From Mobula hypostoma (lineage: Eukaryota): a stretch of 64,000 bases of DNA. Of the stretch, positions 1 through 10,515 are shown piece after piece (within the stretch, counting starts at the first letter, position 1; each line of letters begins with the position of its first letter). The stretch lies in assembly GCF_963921235.1 (NCBI RefSeq), contig NC_086108.1:66590001-66654000 (forward strand). The letters are read 5' to 3'. A program made the position numbers and the translations under genes. Below the pieces are notes generated by a model. The model was not told the origin of the DNA. It saw only the letters and a program-made list of their open reading frames with translations, and ran no database searches.

Positions 1-2093
1 TCATTGTAGAAGTTTATTTTTGTGGTGGCAGAACATTGCTGGTTACTGATCTGTTTGCGCCAACAGCCAGAATAGTGGCTTTCAGATGACACAACTCCAA
101 AAACTCAATCATTGATGATATTTCTATACAGTGTCATTCATTTGCTATGACAAAATAAGTAAATTTCTTTTTTTTATCAAACAGAATTTCAGGATTGTTA
201 CTGACATTTTAGCAATTGTATTTTTTTCCTTTTTAAACTGATAGCTAGGGACTTCGTTCATTCATTACAATCTATAATGGGATGATAGAAATACTATTGC
301 CTCAATACAATATTTTGTTAGTTGCATTTTCTGTTCTGCAGTGCCTTTTTTTGTTTAATTAAGGCATGCTGTCAGATCAACAATCTTATCTCTCACTAGA
401 TATACAATTTAATCTAAGTGGTATCATCTAGTGAACATGTCAAAGTGGGATGAAAGCATTCGGTAGGATAATTACACTCATTAGCCGTGTAAGCCAACCT
501 AAAAGATCAACACTTCACCATAGTGTTTATATCTCAACACTGTATGACCTCTTTGCTGCATGCAGATTGTTGACCCTCTAATTTTCCATCTGTATTTATG
601 AAATGAAATTTAATATAATGTTTGAAACCAAGCACCTGAAATCTTGTCTCATTTCCCTCCTGGCATTTTATCCCCATGTGTTAAGCTTGTGCTGGCTGGA
701 TGAATTTTGGTCAAAATTCTTTAGTGTCTGGAAAGGGTTGATTCTAATGAAGAAAAATTTATGCTTTTGAATTGTAATGTTAGCCACTCAAAAGGGAAGG
801 TGTGATACAGGTCAATGACAAAATGGCCACCTTCAACCACAACCTCAGCTGAAACAACCCATAATGGCTGTTTCATTATCCGTTTTTTAGCTTCAGAGCA
901 GAAACTGCTATCCAAACTAGAATGATTCTTTGTTGCAGATTTACATGTCCCATTTTTAAATTGTTTAAAAAATGTTAAAGGTGCCATTTGGAGAAAATTC
1001 GAAAACTAATAGCATTTGTATCAAGATGTCCTCGAATATTTAGAGTGTAACACATTTTCTCAGTTATAAGATATCGCATTTCTGTAAAATACTTTATGCT
1101 TATGGATTCATGAAGCATAGACTTGAGGCCATTGAATTTAAAGCAGTCTCTATTACATCTCTCTCTCCTAAACAAGGAATAATTAGAGTACTCAAAACTT
1201 TGAATTGTTCCATTGAGTTACATTTATAATTCTGCAGTAGCATTGATGAACCCTTGTGGAGTAACCCGGGGTCCAAATTAACTGCTTTAATACAGTCAAA
1301 ACTAATTATACTTTTTTATAGTTTGGAAATTAAGCATAACAACAGCCTTCTGGAATACAGATAGAGTCTTGAAGTACCTCTTGGTAATTAGGGTAAATTA
1401 CTATTCAGCCAGAAGTGTCACCTACATCTATCTCCCGTTTTCTCTGTAATGGCAAGATTTCTGCCAACATCTGATTTGCAAATGATAGAAAAGCATCTTT
1501 AGTCTCAGATTAATTAGACAGACAATTAACATTATGCAGAAGAAACAAGTGGGCAATCAGGATATGTGTTGTCTCTGTAGTACTGCTATTATAAAGTTTC
1601 AATTTTGAGGCAATTGTCATGAAAACAATGCTGAAAAAAAATTGAAAATGTTTTTGAATCATGTGAATACATCTCAACTATAAACTTAACTGCATTTTCT
1701 TTACTATATATTAAATGATGAAGGGAACCCTGGTCTACATAACTTAAATCAGGTACTCTTTTGTCTGCATGGTTTGCTTGAATGTTAGAGTCCCGTGTTA
1801 TTCTCATGGAGATTGTGTGTGCGTTAGTATTTCTTGTCACTTTCTCAGTTCCTGTAGCTAGCTCAGTTTACCATTGATTTGTAAAATAAATTCCTTTGCT
1901 AAGATCACTTAATTTTGGAAAAATAAGCCTTAAAAATTGCAAATTTTAGATTTGCTATGTTTGATTTAATTATTTAAATGTTTGTTTAGATGGTTGAACT
2001 AATCTTATGTCACTCAAATTTCACTGTGATGCTCTACTTTTCATCACAAGAAAACAGTGGTGCCAGTTTCAGATACAGTACAGCATTTGATAC

Positions 2094-2331
2094 TGTGTGT
2101 TCAATACTTCAGTAACATTTGAGTAATTTTGTAAATATATAATTTGTTTAAGAATTCTTTATATGTTTAAATAATTAAATCGAGGTTGTATGCAATAGTA
2201 CGTGAATGGCATATGTCATCATGCTGCCACATCATACATACGTGCATCACTTAAAGTAAAAACAAAGTTAGACTCACATTCTGGTTTCCCTTGCTTTTCT
2301 TAGTTTTATGTGTTGGAGTTACAAAACATAA
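2094..2331 (+). repeat. 5' LTR of the Gypsy element
   Basis: Starts TGT, is followed by the PBS-like tggtgac and aligns by eye with 8065-8272. Confidence 0.7.
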
Positions 2332-2579
2332 GTGGTGACAAGGAAGTGTTAAATGAACCCGAGATGACTACCTATGCACCTGTTGAAGCGTAGTGAGATG
2401 CTTGAGATTTTTTAAAAAGCGCAGCAAGAAACAGTTGAGTTTTAAAAAATGCAGCATGTTTTTTTTCTTGCAAGAGGAGAAAGACGTTTGAGTTTCAAAA
2501 CAAAGGCAGAAAGTGGAAAAATTCACGGGTTCATAAGTAGTAAGTACCAGGTGATAATCATAAATTTTAAAAAGCAGAA

Positions 2580-3762
2580 ATGCCTGGCTTCATCAAAAGG
2601 TAGATGCATTCAGTTACACAAGAGATAACTGGCTGCTGTATACAGAATGAATTGAGCAGTATTTTGAAGCAAATGAAATAGCCTATAAGATACAAGTGCC
2701 AATTTTGCTGAGTGCATACAGTTTGCTTTGGGGTTTAATTGCTCGAATCAACCCAGCAGAAATAAGCTTTGCTGATATCATAAAAGTAATACAGGAACAT
2801 TTAGAACCACAGCTATTGATAATTGCAGAATGTTTTTGGTTCCATAAGTAGAATCAAAAGGAAGGGAAAGCCATGTCAGTGTATGTGTCTGAGTATTACC
2901 AATTCAGTAATGGGGTTAATGATGCACTGATAGACCGTTTAGTTTGTGGAATGTTGCAGGAGAGTATTCAGAAACAACTCCTAACTGAAGCACAACTTGC
3001 ATTTAAAAGAGCAATTGAAATACAGTAACTGTATCGATAGAAACAGCAGACAGAAATGCAAGTGAGCATGAGCAAATCTGCAACATTTAAACAGAAACCA
3101 GCCTGGCCGAACAAATTGTGCTACCATTGTGACAGGGGATCATATACACCAGACCGATGCAGATTTAAAGGATGAACCTATAGAAAATGAAAAACAGTAG
3201 GACAAATACAAAGAGCATGTTAAGCAGACAAAAGTAAATGGACTGTACGGGGAAGAGAAAAAGATAAGTCAAGTTACACTTTCAGGAAGAGCTTTAATCT
3301 GCATGCTGATGAAAAATCTGATAATGATGAGATTGACACAGGATTGGGTTACCTTGAGTTTTACTATGTGAAAACTAACAATGGAATGCTATATGGTTTA
3401 CACTAGAAGTGAATGGCAAATTAATTAAAATAGAATTAAACACTGGCTTGGCTGTTTCAGTCATTCCACAAAATGAGTTTGAATGGCACTTCAAAGATAC
3501 TGAACTGCATTTATCCAACTAAGAACTTGTACTGAAGAAAAGATGATTCCACAAATTATGTTTGTGACAGTAAAATACAGAACCAACAAGCTATATTGAG
3601 CATGTATGTGGAAAAACAGGAGGACCAGCATTGAGGGGATGTTAGTGGCTGAGACAACTACAGCTTGACTGGAAATCTATCCACTATATGCATGCCGCAC
3701 CCTCTACAATAAAGTTAACTCACAGCGATAACAAAGATACTGCTGGATGATGCCACAACTGT
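2580..3762 (+). pseudogene. Decayed Gypsy gag and aspartic protease
   Basis: Frameshifted fragments IEQYFEANEIA, QEHLEPQLLIIAECFWFHK*NQKEG, DRLVCGMLQESIQKQLLTEAQLAFKRAIEI, Zn-knuckle relic CYHCDRGSY and protease motif IELNTGLAVSVI (degenerate D-T-G). Confidence 0.8.
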
Positions 3763-3764
3763 CT

Positions 3765-5098
3765 CCATACTGAACTCCATGAGCAGTTGCCCAACCAATG
3801 ACAAATAGGTGATGGTGCCAACCTCTGTGCTTCAGATTGGGAAGCGTATTGGATTAAAGAGGGACCGTGCTGCTCAGGGGAAGCACGAAAGTGACAAAAG
3901 TAGCAGTCTGACTACTACAACAGATTTTGTAGGCAACATATCTGAGAAAGCTTCTGATATGTTATTCAGGCAGTTACTTGTGAAACATGGCTTGGTTTTA
4001 AACTGGAGGAGAGTTCATGGAGCTTCAGGAAAGATGCAAGCAATAGGTTTCAATAGGTACATTCAATGTCAGAGAAATGTATACAATATACATCCTGAAA
4101 TTCTTTTTCTTAGCAAACATCTATGAAAACAGAGGAGTGCCCCAAAGAGTGAATGATAGTTAAATGTTAGAACCCCAAAGCCCCCCCCCCAGCTCCTGCC
4201 TTCCATACATAGGCAGCAGAAAAGCAATGATCCTCCCTACCACCAGTAAAAAGCATCGGCTCCCCCCACCGAGCACTCAAGCGGCAGCAAAGCATCATTA
4301 AAGACACAGACTTGCAGTATCCCAAAGACTACTCATTCACCTGGTATTCGACATACCACATACCACAGTGAGAGGGGAGACATAACAAATCAACTTGCTG
4401 ATTTATGGTGTTAAAAGTGTGTTGTGTCACTTCTTCCGAGCTTTGTGCCCAAAGAACTTGGGTCTCGGGGCACACTGCCAGCAGCTTGCTGCTTTCAATA
4501 TTCCGTCTCCCACGACACACCAGTTTTCAGCGGTGGCACCAACCTCGAGTCCACCCACCTCCAGAGCCACGAAATCCCAGAACCCTGAAGGCGCACTAGT
4601 CTTCTAGGCCATGTCCTTGGCATATCGAATAGCGGCCAGCCGTGAGACCCCGACGGCAGGTCCCATTTCCGCAAAGAACCGAAGTCAGCATGTAACTCCA
4701 GGTCAGAGTCTTCAAAAAAAACCCTGAAAGGGAAAAATAGAGATATTAAAGATAGAAATAGAGCTGTTTCTGAAGATGCAAGCAAAGATAACACTGTTAG
4801 CATTTGGCTTTTGTGAATACAAACAACCAGAATCTACTCTGCATGCATTAAGGTTATTGCCTGAACTTCAAGTGGAAGACGAAAAAGCTGCTTGTAAGCT
4901 TAGATGCAAAGCCAAAGCCCAGCTGGATGAATGGAAGGCCAAAAGGAATGGAGTCAGTGGAGACACAAAAACAGAGGAGTCATCAGATGATGTTCTGGAT
5001 GAGGAATACAAGAGGAGAGATCAGATCGTAAAGGGAACAATAGAAGGATTAGTGAGGGAATACTCTAAAACTAGAAGAAGAAAAAGGAGGAAAAAGAA
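3765..5098 (+). pseudogene. RBM25: Processed (intronless) RBM25 fragment covering the RRM and following helix, interrupted by an insertion at ~4043-4798
   Basis: ORFs 3809-4126 and 4776-5108 join to give TTTDFVGNISEKASDMLFRQLLVKHGLVLNWRRVHGASGKMQ-AFGFCEYKQPESTLHALRLL...KAQLDEWKAKR...LDEEYKRRDQIVKGTIEGLVREYS. This matches the RBM25 RRM as I recall it (FVGNISEKASDMLIRQLLAKCG...AFGFCEYKEPESTLRALRLL). There is a compensated frameshift near 4880-4910. Confidence 0.9.
4043..4798 (-). mobile_element. Non-coding LINE-tailed retroelement inserted into the RBM25 retrocopy
   Basis: Short tandem tail (caataggtt/caataggt) at the left end and a GC-richer body. It splits the RRM between MQ and AFGFCEY. Confidence 0.6.
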
Positions 5099-5242
5099 AG
5101 GTGTCTAGAGTCTAAACGAACACGCCACGAGTAATGTCAGCAGAACACACTACACTAACACTGAACCAATTACCTTCTTGAATATGGTAATGCAACACAA
5201 ACCACAACCAACACCAGCCATGCTGTTCCTGTGTTGTCCCTT
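5096..5242 (+). pseudogene. Gypsy integrase core C-terminal remnant
   Basis: gaaaggtgtctagagtctaaac (ERFVQSLK-like) through PAMLFLCCP (PAMLFLGRP-like). It resumes at 7498 with LQSCLDLLKP. Confidence 0.7.
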
Positions 5243-7497
5243 CAAAGTTCAAAGTACATTCATTATTAATGTATGTATACATCATACAACCTTGAGATTT
5301 GTCTCCTTATAGGTAGCCACAAAAGCATGAAACCCAAAAGAACCCAATTAAAAAAAAAATCAAACATCCAATGCACAGAGAGAGGAAAAAAAAAACAAAT
5401 TGTGGAAACAATAAAAGCAAGAAAACAGCATTCAGAAGGAAAGTGAGTTCATGGACATGAAGCCTGGAGTAGCCAGAGCAGGCCCACAGTCTCAGCCTCA
5501 GTTCATCACACAGCGGAGCAGAATGTCACAGAGCTGGTAGACACGAAGCTTGGAGCAGGCCCACAACCTCAAACTTAATGTAGCAAAGAGTAGAGCAAAA
5601 GTTGTGGGGCAGTGAGCAGAATTGTTACAGCCCGTTCCTCTGGTCCAGACACCCTGACTTTCAATCCATTGTTTAAATTGTCCAAATATCAGATCATTCC
5701 TCTCTCTAAGACCCGGCCCCTGTCACATCAATACACTCGAGGCCTGGACCTTGCCACCATGTTACGGCCCATATCCAACCTTTCCAACGTGGCGTGGAGC
5801 TGAGATCGATCAAACCTCACTCTTGGTTAAGGTGATGGGCTCCAAAACTTATCCACTCTAATTGTTCTCTGTTCCACCAGCCATGACTCTGTCTCGAAAG
5901 AGCCTCGACCTCACTCCGTTCACTTCTCCTCAAACACACCTCAACCTCTCTCTGACTGCTTCTCCTTGAAAACACCTCAACCTCACTCCGACCATTTCTC
6001 CTCAAACACACCTCAACCTCACTCCGACCGCTTCTCCTTGAAAACACCTCGACCTCACTCTGACCTCGTTTCCTCAAACACACCTCGACCTCACTCTGAC
6101 CTTGTTTCCTCAAACACACCTTGGCCTCTCTCTCTGACTGCCTCTCCTCAAACACACCTCGACCTCTCTCCGATCGCTTCTCCTCAAACACACCTCGACC
6201 TCACTCTGACCACGTTTCTTCAAACACACCTCGACCTCACTCTGACCACGTTTCCTCAAACACACCTTGACCTCGCCTTGACAGCTTCTCCTCAAACACA
6301 CCTCAACCTCACACTGACCGCTTCTCCTCAAACATACCTCGACCTCACTCCAACTGCTTCTCCTCAAACACAACTCAACCTCACGCTGACTGCGTTTCCT
6401 CAAACACACCTCAACCTCTCTCTAACCGCTTCTCCTCGAAAACACCTCAACCTCAGTCCAACCGCGTTTCCTCAAACACACCTCAACCTCGCTCCGAACA
6501 TTTCTCTTTAAACACACCTTGACCTCTCTCCAACCGCTTCTCCTAAAACACGACTCTACCTCACTCTGACCATGTTTCCTCAAACACACCTTGACCTCAC
6601 TCTGACCGTATTTCCGCAAACACACCTCAACCTCACTCTGACCACGTTTCCTCAAACACAACTCGACCTCACTCTGACCGCATATCTTCAAACACAACTC
6701 GACCTCACTCTGACTGCGTTTCCTCAAACACACCTCGACCTCACTCTGACCGCGTTTCCTCAAACACACCTCGACCTCACTCTGACCGCGTTTCCTCAAA
6801 CACACCTCGACCTCACTCTGACCGCGTTTCCTCAAACACACCTCGACCTCACTCTGACCGCGTTTCCTCAAACACACCTCGACCTCACTCTGACCGCGTT
6901 TCCTCAAACACACCTCGACCTCACTCTGACCGCGTTTCCTCAAACACACCTCGACCTCACTCTGACCGCGTTTCCTCAAACACACCTCGACCTCACTCTG
7001 ACCGCGTTTCCTCAAACACACCTTGACCTCGCCTTGACCACTTCTCCTCAAACACACCTCAACCTCACCTTGACCGCTTCTCTTCAAACACACCTCAACT
7101 CTGCCTCTCCTCAGTCACACCCCGACTCACTCCAACTGCTTCTCCTCAATCACACCCCAACCTCACTCCAAGCGTTTCTCCTCAAACATGGCTCAACCTC
7201 ACTCCGACTGCTTCTCCTCAAACACACTTCGGCCTCACTTTACCGCGTCTCCTCAAACACACCTCAACCTCATTCCGACCACTTCTCCTCAAACACGCCT
7301 CAACCTCTCTCCATTTGCATCTGCACCTGCGTGCCTTGATCCTCAAACCAGCCTTGCCTTAGCTCACCTCTTCATTGTTTGCAGTAATCGTTTACTGTCT
7401 TTTTTTTACAGAAAAGTTATTAATAAAGTATTTAGTTGTATTTATTGTTTTGAAGACCTCCAGCAAGTTATCACATCCTCAGTAGCACCATCTTCAA
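5243..7497 (-). mobile_element. Non-autonomous composite retroelement with an internal VNTR
   Basis: Tandem tail ttcaaagttcaaagt at the left (3') end and minus-strand start ttgaagatggtg (AAGATGGCG-like). Flanks ccctt/ctctt resemble a TSD. It splits the Gypsy integrase. Confidence 0.6.
5905..7312. repeat. 36-bp minisatellite, ~39 units, consensus tcctcaaacacacctcgacctcactctgaccgcgtt
   Basis: Exact period 36 (e.g. 6721 and 6757). Near-perfect core ~6700-7020 with degenerate flanks. It produces the repetitive ORFs (PQTHLDLTLTAF)n and (CLRKRGQSEVEV)n. Confidence 0.97.
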
Positions 7498-7960
7498 CTC
7501 TTGCAGTCATGCTTGGATCTCCTCAAACCCAGTCTCAGAAGGACATACAGCTGAGACAAATTGAAGGTTCCTCAAATAAGGAGATTCAATCTTTCACCTC
7601 TGAACAAGCAGCCCTGTCAAGGGACTACAGAGGTGATGAAAAGTGGGTGCTGGGAAAGACTAAGGACAGAACTGGACCACTCTACCACACAGTGGAGATT
7701 GCACCTGATATTATCTGGAGATAACACATCGATCAGTTGAGGAGTCAATTGTTAGGGAATAAAGCTGGCTACCACAGTCAGAACCACTTCCTGCAGTTTC
7801 AGAGTCAACTCCTACAACCACCACAGAGGGTGCCCCTGAGCCTGAGATTGTTCCACAGCTGCAAGTCCCACTTGCCAAGCAGAGTGATTCCTCTCATCAG
7901 GAAAGACATTATCCCACAAGAGTAAGAAATCCCCCACAATGATTAACTCTTTAGGCCTGA
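7498..7960 (+). pseudogene. Gypsy integrase C-terminal (GPY/F-like) region
   Basis: RDYRGDEKWVLGKTKDRTGPLYHTVEIAPDIIWR*HIDQLR in and after ORF 7188-7724. Confidence 0.8.
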
Positions 7961-8064
7961 ATTGACTATGCTGTGGATATCTGTATAGTAGTTGTATTAT
8001 ATAGTATACTGTGGTTGAGATACATTTTATATTGTGTCGGAGTCTACAGCTAAGCAGAGAGGTG

Positions 8065-8272
8065 TGTTGTGAATTTAATATTTGAGTAATCCTGTGTGTG
8101 TGTGTGTAAAATATTAAGCATTTTTGTTCATTTAAATAATTCATTATGAGTTATATTTATAAATACGTGAATTGGATGTCTCGCTTAACGAGACCACAAA
8201 GTTGGACTCACATTTCGGACTCCTGTGCCTTCCTTTGAATTAGTTTAATATTTTGAAGTTATAAAATATAAC
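8065..8272 (+). repeat. 3' LTR of the Gypsy element
   Basis: Follows purine tract aagcagagagg, starts tgttgtg and is similar to 2094-2331. Confidence 0.7.
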
Positions 8273-10515
8273 TGTACCCTTGTTGCTTAATGATTAAGTA
8301 AAGTTTAACTATGGAGTAAATGAGTTTAACCCTATACTAGATAAAGACTTCATTAAAAGCATGATATAAATGATGTTCACACAGCTTGCTGTGTAATTGC
8401 TTGAAGGATTATGCTGCAAAATTGTGAAACTGACAGGCTTTTAAACTTCCATTTATTCTGTATATGGAGATTGGTTGTATGTAGATTTATTTATTTATTA
8501 TTGGGTATTAATATAAAATATTTCAAGAGATGGGAAGTAATGCATTTGAAAAACAGCAGTTATACTGAGCTAAATTGATATTCTGGAACCTACTGAAAAT
8601 TCCGTCTAAATTCAGTTACTTCAATGAAAAAGTAATGGAATCCCTGAGAGGATATCACTTTTCCCTTAAAGTGAAATCTTAACTTATCATATTAGCAGAG
8701 GCAACAAAAATGAACCTCTGTTTAAGGCAATAGTTTTCTTAATTTTTTTTAAAAGTGCAGTTTTGTACAATCAAGTTTCTGTGTTTTGTGTATTTGAAGG
8801 ATTAGATTACTGCACAACCTGTTGTGGTTTATTAGCTGTCCATAGTTCATTTATTCAAATTACCAACTAAAATGCTTCATGGCACTTCATACAGTGAATT
8901 CCTTTTGAAATTAGCAAAGGTTATTGACATAGATGAGCCCTGAATAAATACATAATGTCAGCTCATTGATTTTTTTTTTCTTCACAAAAATTTAATCAGT
9001 TCCGTATCTGACTTGATATTTTCAAGATTGTTTTGCTCATGAAAGTGTATCATTGTTTAATTATTATTTAAAGTGGCCCTTTGGTACTTGGGTTGTGGTT
9101 TTAACTTCCTGAGAGCAATTCCTGCTAGGTCAGCCAGAGGCCTATTTAAATCAGGAATGTACTTCTTAAAGCAAGATTGCATTCCCAATTGCAGTTGGTG
9201 TGGAGGATGAAGCTGATTCACGATGAATCACAGACTAGCCCTCAGGTTTTTGAGGCCTTTCTGGGAATCATGCTACAAGAGGCCAGGGGAAGGAGGGAAA
9301 TGATAAATCCATCTGGTGAGACCAAGATCCTAAAATGACACATTTACCATTGAGAAAGATTATCATCCCCACGAAGAATAAACCCCAGAAATTGAGTCAA
9401 TGTGTATCCATAGACTTGGGGCAAAAGCAAATGTGAGTTTCCATCATGCCTAACAAGAACTGGCAACACTGCTGTTCTGACTCTTAGCAACATTTTCCCC
9501 TTCTTCCTCTCCTCTACAATCGGCATGCACAATGCTGCTCAATCTCTTCACAAAAAACCACCAACCCTCACAAAGACCACAGTCAGTGTTCTCCACTCAC
9601 CAGGTAATGCAGAATTCCAAGCTTCTCATGGCCCCTTCCTCAATTCAGTGTTCCTTTCCATTTAATACCTATTTCACATGTCTGCAGAAGTGTGCAGTGA
9701 TTTCATGGCTACCCACTGTAGTTTGAACATTTTAAAATGTAATAAAATAAAAAGAATCAGCAATGGAAAAAAAATTAAAGGAAATGACCCCTTAACCGTT
9801 GAAAAAATTAGAAAAGAGCAATTTGACATTTCAAAGACTAACATTTAAAGAAACATATCAATCAGAAATGTTTGGGAAAAAATTGTTTGAGATTCTATAT
9901 GGAAGGCCATGTGGGATAGGAAATTGTTAAAAGCACAAGAATGTGGTCAATCCACAGGGAGTAATATAGAAGACAAATTCAGTGTGAATTAAGACCATGG
10001 GTAATATTATCCTAGAGGCTACATAGTCAGCAATGAATGCAAAGATTATCAAAACGTAGAAAAAGAGGCCAGAGGAAGAAGGTCTCTGAACCAACGGAGG
10101 CAATGTCTCCTACTAGGATTATAAATAGGAAATGTGCACTCAAGATGACTAAATGTAGAAACACAAAGAGAGGTCACAGTTTCAACTGCGTGATCAAATC
10201 AAGATAATCAGAAAATAACACCAAAAACTCACTGAGTGTAATTGTGATCGGTATTAAGAAACTGAAAAGTGATGTGAATATGAACGAACAACCAATTATT
10301 TTAATTAAAACAAATGTTTTGTAGATTTTGTGGATGCAAGTAAATCATTTCCTAGCACACTAACCCAAATATCGTTATCTCTGTTTCAAAAAAGGAGATT
10401 GCTGAGAATTTATATACGCAGCCAAATCTACCTTCAGCTTCCACCACCTCATTTCTCCGTGTGATTAACTGTTCAGTGAATCTGTGAGCAGCAGAGACAA
10501 CTGCAAGTCCTGATA

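Follow-up and report, generated by a model that had tools for sequence, protein, structure and literature searches.

A decayed Gypsy-type LTR element of Mobula hypostoma with spliced RBM25 sequence in place of pol, and the non-autonomous family to which it very probably belongs

Introduction

A decayed LTR element on contig NC_086108.1 of Mobula hypostoma (GCF_963921235.1) carries sequence of the host gene RBM25 where its pol gene would be expected. How did spliced host mRNA come to stand there, and has it spread? The original prediction, made on the same 64,000 nucleotides (the whole stretch analysed, here called the window), proposed a capture by the element itself. The analysis described here leads to the view that the window element is very probably a dead member of a Gypsy-type LTR family that is non-autonomous. 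In this family spliced host RBM25 mRNA took the place of pol, likely on one occasion, when reverse transcription switched template twice, and the family likely spread afterwards through the enzymes of pol-bearing relatives.

Structure of the element

The element runs from LTR through PBS-like site, gag and protease remnants, RBM25 piece, C-terminal part of the integrase and PPT-like stretch to the second LTR (Table 1), and this order, claimed beforehand, was borne out by reading of the sequence and by copy comparison. Equally sound was the description of the RBM25 piece as sense, internal and free of a poly(A) tail or TSD, as was the claimed loss of pol domains at its site: RT, RNase H and the N-terminal part of the integrase are missing, where pol-bearing relatives hold about 1.8-3 kb. 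The piece had been placed at about 3765-5098; it begins at 3751, and two later insertions had been overlooked. The first, of 756 bp, cuts the RBM25 piece in two, so that its length is about 600 nt and not 1.3 kb, and the second, of 2.26 kb, cuts the integrase part in two. The first insertion was considered as a retained host intron and rejected, as it has no match to the introns of the RBM25 gene. A Pfam search of the window's own frames gave no meaningful match; for the protease, an RVP match was obtained in the family copy L005. The window copy is an old, dead and atypical chimera.

Table 1. Features of the element, in window coordinates
Feature	Position	Strand	Basis
5' LTR, decayed	2091..2332	+	Alignment to 3' LTR; start placed via 12 other elements
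PBS-like site, first letters TGG	2333..2345	+	Read from sequence
gag (CCHC-type knuckle remnant) and protease/linker remnants; many stops and frameshifts	2570..3750	+	Translation; DNA 70-77% identical to that of family copies
Left switch point, 7-nt word TGCCACA	3751..3757	+	Word present in RBM25 exon e2 as well as in pol linker, with one reading frame in common
Captured RBM25 part 1, from the end of exon e2 through ea, eb and ec to the first 2 nt of ed	3751..4042	+	Match to host spliced exons
Later insertion, unrelated repeat, private to window copy	4043..4798	.	Other copies contiguous at site; comparable pieces in L023, L120, L130 lie at unrelated sites
Captured RBM25 part 2, with exon ed and most of ee, followed by a deleted purine-rich remnant of exon eg	4799..5097	+	Match to host spliced exons
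Secondary join, family post-RBM25 tail to integrase core of pol-bearing relative, at near-repeat within element	5095..5110	+	Copy comparison; one genome match at <=2 mismatches
Integrase core, C-terminal part	5098..5242	+	73-78% identity to pol-bearing copies; neighbouring frames there match integrase Pfam models
Later insertion, unrelated repeat with 36-bp minisatellite (5903-7311, 39 copies)	5243..7499	.	Other copies contiguous 5242/7500
Integrase C-terminus and 3' tail	7500..8051	+	Comparison with pol-bearing copies
PPT-like purine-rich stretch	8052..8064	+	Read from sequence
3' LTR, decayed; without clear TSD against 5' flank	8065..8273	+	Alignment to 5' LTR; flank comparison

The captured RBM25 sequence and its parent gene

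Window positions 3751-5065 match spliced exons of the host RBM25 gene and stand in place of pol. Identity to the host exons is 81% and 86% for the two RBM25 pieces, and a family copy shares 58-72% identity with vertebrate RBM25 proteins. The parent gene was located by protein query, its exons are AG/GT-bounded, and its introns are lost exactly, as the original prediction had expected: those of 5805, 3425, 1738 and 2778 nt are absent from captured part 1, and one of 4824 nt from part 2. Among 96 copies, the first five exon junctions are each crossed without intron by 68-81, and the next three by 7-11. Two RBM25 introns also appear as CT..AC joints in contigs of four out of four runs, which presumably are RNA runs. 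The missing exon ef was considered as a case of exon skipping and rejected; the join falls inside exon ee, which indicates a deletion.

The matches of a PWI family search were other loci, which we take to be SRRM1-like and PRPF3-like, and not RBM25. A PDB sequence search returned only a weak RRM match. No annotated protease-RBM25 fusion protein of 129-412 aa was present among 99 matches.

Replacement of pol and the switch points

Some relatives have the same linker followed downstream by RT, RNase H and integrase, and in these pol-bearing copies the three domains lie at the very site of the RBM25 piece, which therefore replaces pol and does not interrupt it. Their domain order PR-RT-RH-IN was pieced together from several copies (L113, L114, L116, L124, L128), with Pfam matches to RVT_1, RT_RNaseH, Integrase_H2C2 and, weakly, rve_3. 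On this domain order, the Pfam models and general likeness, the element is provisionally assigned to the Ty3/Gypsy type.

Mapping against the pol-bearing Gypsy copies, as had been proposed, yielded a shared word at each end. The left join is found in 51 of 58 RBM25-bearing copies, in frame with gag-protease, and its word TGCCACA recurs in seven of the eight pol-bearing copies shown (three exact, four with one change), where the sequence continues into pol. The founder's right switch lies at a 9-nt word, GAGAAGAAA, common to the element and the later RBM25 exon eh. The chance per random pair of points is 6.8e-4 for the 7-nt left word and 3.5e-5 for the 9-nt right word. The microhomology claimed at 5098 as a capture point is a different matter: this RBM25-to-integrase junction is a later join of two element sequences, private to the window copy, and not the family's capture junction. 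Sequence that is intron-less, an ORF that is replaced, microsimilarity at both founder switch points and a host piece without poly(A) tail or surrounding TSD are the marks of an LTR-mediated retrocopy; those of a LINE-made processed pseudogene (3' poly(A), TSD, no target loss) are absent. The LTR-mediated origin proposed at the outset is hence supported by exact intron loss, replacement of pol and shared words at both founder switch points.

Under the preferred explanation, RBM25 mRNA would have been co-packaged in a particle, where minus-strand synthesis would have jumped from the element's 3' tail onto exon eh at the 9-nt word, and at TGCCACA a second jump would have led from RBM25 back to the linker between protease and RT. 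The product would have retained LTRs, PBS, PPT and gag-protease, and so would have stayed packageable and been copied in trans in a burst.

Copy number and family structure

A 23-mer across the left junction has 547 matches in the genome (control 0), and the pol-type 23-mer at the same site has 1205. The RBM25 form makes up about 30% of the family's copies at this site. The original prediction had looked to shared junctions as the sign of a family; this proved right for the left one, common to 547 places, and wrong for the join at 5098, found once. The capture was copied to at least several hundred places and likely to a few thousand, with a family size estimated at 1,500-3,000 copies. The RBM25-bearing elements lack RT and integrase, keep the cis signals and lie dispersed with TSDs of their own (by eye, five of 11 have a 5-bp TSD matching at 4-5 of 5 positions), and they constitute a non-autonomous LTR family.

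The copies also share later deletions in the purine-rich 3' part, which was trimmed at least twice. Markers of this part count 598 matches for the deleted form and 167, with the host gene among them, for the undeleted form. The undeleted, long form was considered as younger and rejected, since those of its copies that were sampled have 81-86% identity to the host and do not differ in this from the others. The choice of copies by likeness biases divergence low.

The window copy: one insertion or two

The 3' half of the window copy has a history of its own. This copy would later have lost its own 3' end and gained the one of a pol-bearing relative, most likely by the joining of two insertions after integration, and it also received the two unrelated insertions. 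Reverse transcription makes both LTRs of an insertion identical; the window LTRs are 0.32-0.33 apart (K2P) and differ by a 29-bp indel. Each ranks the other only 29th and 34th of 44, with a p-distance of 0.27 against 0.24 for all pairs, whereas LTR pairs with a TSD match of 3-5 of 5 positions rank 1-7. Moreover, the window flanks match at one of five TSD positions. The two LTRs may thus come from two insertions. Two findings count against the preferred explanation here: the distance of 0.33 lies inside the family range of 0.17-0.39 (n=16), and a clear TSD is missing from four of 11 other elements too.

A tentative alternative, possible if somewhat doubtful, concerns this 3' half only: before integration, reverse transcription may have switched template once more, onto co-packaged pol-bearing RNA, and so recovered the integrase part, which would make the locus a single insertion. 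The join sits at a near-repeat common to the tail and the integrase core, the copy L036 has another join into integrase sequence, and no left-over piece of a second element is present within the 64-kb window. A single insertion should nevertheless have begun with identical LTRs, at odds with the ranks above, and the missing TSD also speaks against it. The original prediction saw a danger to the capture in LTRs of different insertions; this is possibly true of the window copy, and the capture is untouched, being evident from other copies with 5-bp TSDs.

Selection on the cargo and rival origins

Did the RBM25 piece serve the element? On this reading, which is unlikely, the origin would be the same, and either an in-frame Gag-protease-RRM fusion or likeness to an essential host mRNA, evading germline small-RNA silencing, would have driven the spread to thousands of copies. 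The left join is indeed in frame, and many copies are open from linker into RRM; however, both parents read the shared word in one and the same frame, and a switch there yields the in-frame join at no cost. The 580 nt containing the RRM show no shared large deletion while the tail is trimmed, as a useful cargo would also produce. The pol-less element is nonetheless shorter, and shortness may itself favour copying. Fixed differences between host and family number about 20 synonymous to one nonsynonymous, which also favours a useful cargo; against this, the two fixed exon sites covered by contigs of related species are host-lineage changes, and two family-side changes in exon ea alter amino acids. 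The related species used for polarising seem to have split after the capture.

The copies themselves are star-like and their decay is neutral. Private changes in 85 copies comprise 847 synonymous, 2666 nonsynonymous and 129 stops, with an omega of 1.10, a test with little power for a short stem before the burst. No purifying selection on the captured RRM frame was detected over these 85 copies, in none of which do synonymous changes exceed the chance level (lowest p 0.017), and no linkage among 40755 variant pairs remained after correction. With the lowest threshold, common variants include relatively more synonymous changes than rare ones do (19:42 vs 196:824 for the RBM25 part, p=0.03), an effect that is gone at higher thresholds and is explained by recurrent transitions. 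Therefore, the proposal of a non-autonomous family that amplified an RRM holds for the family and for the RRM as DNA, with no selection seen on the RRM, and the RBM25 cargo is most likely a passenger.

Quite improbable is an origin at the DNA level, in which an RBM25 cDNA or LINE-made retrocopy would have recombined with an integrated Gypsy element by microhomology-mediated repair, replacing pol, before amplification of the hybrid. Microhomology at both ends fits end-joining equally well, the flanks inspected by eye often show CR1/LINE-like open frames, and the sequence cannot tell an RNA switch in a particle from DNA repair with RBM25 cDNA. This route, however, needs two precise joins and sense orientation without poly(A), TSD or flanking genomic DNA. 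The same outcome is seen in a SUDS3-carrying family of a different Gypsy lineage in the same genome, which points to a particle-based route. Sampled SUDS3-like copies mostly adjoin Gypsy-like gag sequence; a shared lineage with the RBM25 element was considered and rejected, with a 51-nt DNA match at one of 20 loci and none at the rest. Finally, simple insertion of a LINE-made RBM25 retrocopy is most improbable, since, common as nested insertions into the element are (two in the window), pol is absent at precisely this site, the RBM25 piece lies within the element without poly(A) or TSD, both its ends share words with the element, and the pol-bearing copies are not contiguous across the site.

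Comparison with known captures

Acutely transforming retroviruses carry host coding sequence in frame behind gag (gag-onc), have lost pol, depend on helpers and have a fusion protein that is selected. The RBM25 family resembles them in the in-frame position behind gag, the loss of pol and a likely dependence on helpers, and differs in that no selection was detected and env is lacking.

The mechanism of capture is already published, and copy number is the unusual part. The animal LTR-mediated retrocopies reported by Tan et al. (2016; PMC5131818) likewise have part of the internal ORFs replaced by partial mRNA, microsimilarity with a median of 6 bp where the template switched, neither poly(A) nor TSD, and secondary retroposition with common switch points. 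The cases given there are young, two having multiple insertion sites and 18 sites for nine retrocopies, in contrast to at least 547 matches on one junction and internal subfamily deletions here. Maize Bs1 also holds host exons inside an LTR element with switch points common to all copies, but its accounts give 1-5 copies, three parental genes, and transcription and translation, against one parent and dead copies for RBM25 (PMC5131818, PMC13317346). The KIT-ligand capture of CrocERV29 and the nectin3 capture of CrocERV31 are further ancient vertebrate LTR lineages that multiplied with host mRNA; as described, these are retroviruses with 9 and 6 copies and ORFs under purifying selection, whereas the RBM25 family is Gypsy-type, decays neutrally and exceeds them in copy number by two orders of magnitude (PMC4299795). 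Pxyfem of Plutella is reported as a multicopy (11) LTR template-switch retrocopy with microsimilarity at the switch point, but in tandem W-linked clusters that make silencing RNAs (PMC9674220).

Implications

The published LTR-mediated captures compared here have 1-11 copies, while the RBM25 capture matches its junction at no fewer than 547 places and probably numbers 1,500-3,000 copies. A 2026 preprint tied vertebrate retrocopy numbers to non-LTR elements and listed SUDS3 among the top parents in cartilaginous fishes; mRNA-carrying LTR families inflate such retrocopy counts. Were the cargo useful after all, retrocopies in cartilaginous fishes would stem in large part from a source that has gone unrecognised, the repeated capture of mRNA and its mass amplification by Gypsy lineages separate from each other. 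In the RBM25-bearing copies an old RBM25 isoform survives, with the sequence that it had when captured. With one capture founding a family of at least 547 junction matches, a piece of host mRNA became a structural part of a successful transposon.

Spliced origin of the RBM25 segment

The frame of one family copy was found to match vertebrate RBM25 proteins in a protein comparison, as well as the Pfam domain RRM_1. The parent RBM25 gene lies on the minus strand of the host contig C1, and its exons (labelled here e2 and ea to eh) are bounded by AG/GT. The host very probably belongs to the cartilaginous fishes, as its protein is identical to that of Heptranchias at 196 of 203 aligned residues, versus 79–83% for gar, reedfish and frog. 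Two of the parent-gene introns appear as CT..AC joints in contigs of 4/4 runs. In the window copy five introns (5805, 3425, 1738, 2778 and 4824 nt) are absent, and its RBM25 pieces share 81% and 86% identity with the host exons in spliced form. Among 96 copies, the first five exon junctions are crossed without an intron by 78, 69, 78, 81 and 68, respectively, and the next three by 11, 8 and 7. The RBM25 span in the founder of the family hence began with the final 10 nt of exon e2 and extended ~28 nt into exon eh, with eight introns lost. Exon ea (G000:C1:99832586-99832633, 48 nt) was included in the captured mRNA; since it is missing from the fetched gar and reedfish isoforms and present in a shark protein, the family preserves one splice form.

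Replacement of pol and size of the family

In several pol-bearing copies the match to the window stops at 3757 and resumes at ~5100, with reverse transcriptase, RNase H and integrase frames in between, and RBM25 was found in 0 of 20 copies chosen by their integrase core. At the left switch, a 7-nt word, TGCCACA, is common to the protease-RT linker and exon e2 and has the identical frame in both; this join is present in 51 of 58 RBM25-bearing copies, in many of which open frames run through it. The word at the founder's right switch, GAGAAGAAA, occurs both in exon eh and in the tail that follows the integrase, and is out of frame with that tail. In 200,000 random trials, at least 7 shared letters occurred in 6.8e-4 of point pairs and at least 9 in 3.5e-5. 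Neither a poly(A) tract nor a target site duplication (TSD) was found around the RBM25 piece.

With the left-junction query, all 39 other scored matches (from 3492 candidates) covered the query almost end to end, and a junction 23-mer with up to 1 mismatch had 284+263 genome matches, with 0 for the control and 1205 for the pol-type counterpart. The original prediction of a host RBM25 mRNA captured in place of pol, lacking poly(A) and TSD, holds, and these 547 matches bear out, at the left junction, its expectation that shared junctions would reveal family-level transduction. The junction pattern (≤1 mismatch) was recovered in 5/29 copies picked by their 3' part, or 5/22 with a recognisable junction; by binomial scaling of this recovery at 9–13% divergence, the family would number about 1,500–3,000 copies. 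Two loci, L021 and L027 (C91:12.6 and 14.7 Mb), carry near-identical open frames, probably through segmental duplication or an assembly duplicate, and L027 was excluded from copy counts.

Of two exclusive 3' markers, the one for a shared internal deletion matched 598 times and the one for the undeleted form 167 times, with the host gene among the latter. A hand count of tail types in 40 mapped of 58 examined copies gave 28 short, 9 medium, 2 long and 1 integrase-joined. Stepwise trimming of the founder in its purine-rich part follows from these counts, and the trimmed forms predominate. In organisms F and H, contigs continue past the RBM25 part into the tail of the element, with 32 and 44 letters on the shorter side of the joint, and in organism G this join is seen as a loose end; the family therefore predates the splits from these organisms.

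The window copy

Coordinates of the window element and its later insertions
Feature	Window position	Strand	Description
Decayed LTR element	2091-8273	+	5' LTR, PBS-like TGG, gag and protease remnants, RBM25-like piece, integrase C-terminal part, purine tract, 3' LTR
Later insertion inside RBM25 piece	4043-4798		Other copies contiguous across site
Later insertion inside integrase part	5243-7499		With 36-bp minisatellite; other copies contiguous across site

Within the window (G000:C50:66590001-66654000), both insertions had been overlooked in the original prediction. The first lies 2 nt away from a junction between RBM25 exons, and pieces of it recur in the loci L023, L120 and L130; the second is reverse-looking, its minisatellite comprises 39 units, and several of the fetched loci contain its left end too. 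The RBM25-integrase junction, taken earlier for the capture junction of the family, proved private to this copy: a 27-mer over it occurs once in the genome, and the join is spanned by 0/39 other matches and found in 0/51 family copies.

At the join, the window follows the family tail over a few bases before continuing as integrase core, the site being a near-repeat within the element. By eye, 5-bp TSDs agree at 4–5 of 5 positions in 5/11 family elements and at 3 or more in 7/11; the window flanks agree at 1/5. Compared with each other, the window LTRs show no more likeness than unrelated ones do (partner ranks of 29 and 34 among 44, after removal of 10 LTRs with ambiguous ends). We consider it fairly probable that the copy consists of two insertions joined after integration; a further template switch during reverse transcription, within a single insertion, is the less probable account. 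Secondary joins recur: the copy at locus L036 has an RBM25-integrase join of its own, placed elsewhere, at the equivalent of window 7589. The window copy is dead and chimeric.

Divergence and selection

The median K2P distance was 0.14 between copies and host (n=57) and 0.20 between copies, and LTR-LTR distances within pairs were 0.17–0.39 (16 pairs, taken from 20 fetched loci and in part with uncertain ends). Linked variant pairs were absent after correction, consistent with a burst that started from near-identical templates. Across 85 copies, private changes were neutral (omega 1.10, with stop codons close to expectation), and none of the 85 stood out. Differences from the host common to most copies were 20 synonymous to 1 nonsynonymous; two of them, visible in relatives' contigs, are host-side changes. 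A third site, an amino-acid one, is in agreement with the shark protein, and in exon ea two changes on the family side replace residues.

The RBM25 cargo was most likely passive. For a cargo that was not passive speak the in-frame left join, the RRM part kept whole, and a mild excess of synonymous changes in common variants under the lowest threshold (RBM25, p=0.03; protease/linker, p=0.0006); this excess weakens as the threshold rises, and recurrent transitions confound it. When runs X16 and X18 were compared with loci L003 and L099, contigs resembling the family were in a few cases deeper than host-like ones and may represent single well-transcribed copies, although contigs cannot show transcription.

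Comparison with other captures

Matches to the Sds3 family were found at 119 places among the best 150 of 331 candidates scored. A Gypsy-like gag lies nearby in 19/20 fetched loci (L194-L213), with ~35–56% amino-acid identity to the window gag and without long matches to it at the DNA level. The Sds3 matches form a second capture family, separate from that of RBM25, and the gag beside them belongs to a different Gypsy-like lineage. SUDS3 is named among the top parents in cartilaginous fishes by a preprint of 2026 that covers 244 vertebrate genomes; 'RBM' does not occur in its main text, and the supplements may list RBM25 (10.64898/2026.06.26.734816).

No paper combining RBM25, retrotransposons and sharks was found in the openly searchable literature, and RBM25 did not occur in the papers listed by related searches; the family may stand in repeat libraries (Repbase, Dfam), beyond the scope of that search. 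Passages of Tan et al. (2016; PMC5131818) describe LTR-mediated capture and secondary copying, with Bs1 at 1–5 copies, and in excerpts on other cases the copy numbers are 9 and 6 for crocodilian ERV captures, which evolve under purifying selection (PMC4299795), and 11 for Pxyfem (PMC9674220); the passages of a plant review contain no high-copy case (PMC13317346). In contrast to the numbers in these excerpts, the RBM25 family has at least 547 junction matches. The RBM25 capture is real, and represents a known mechanism at unusual scale.
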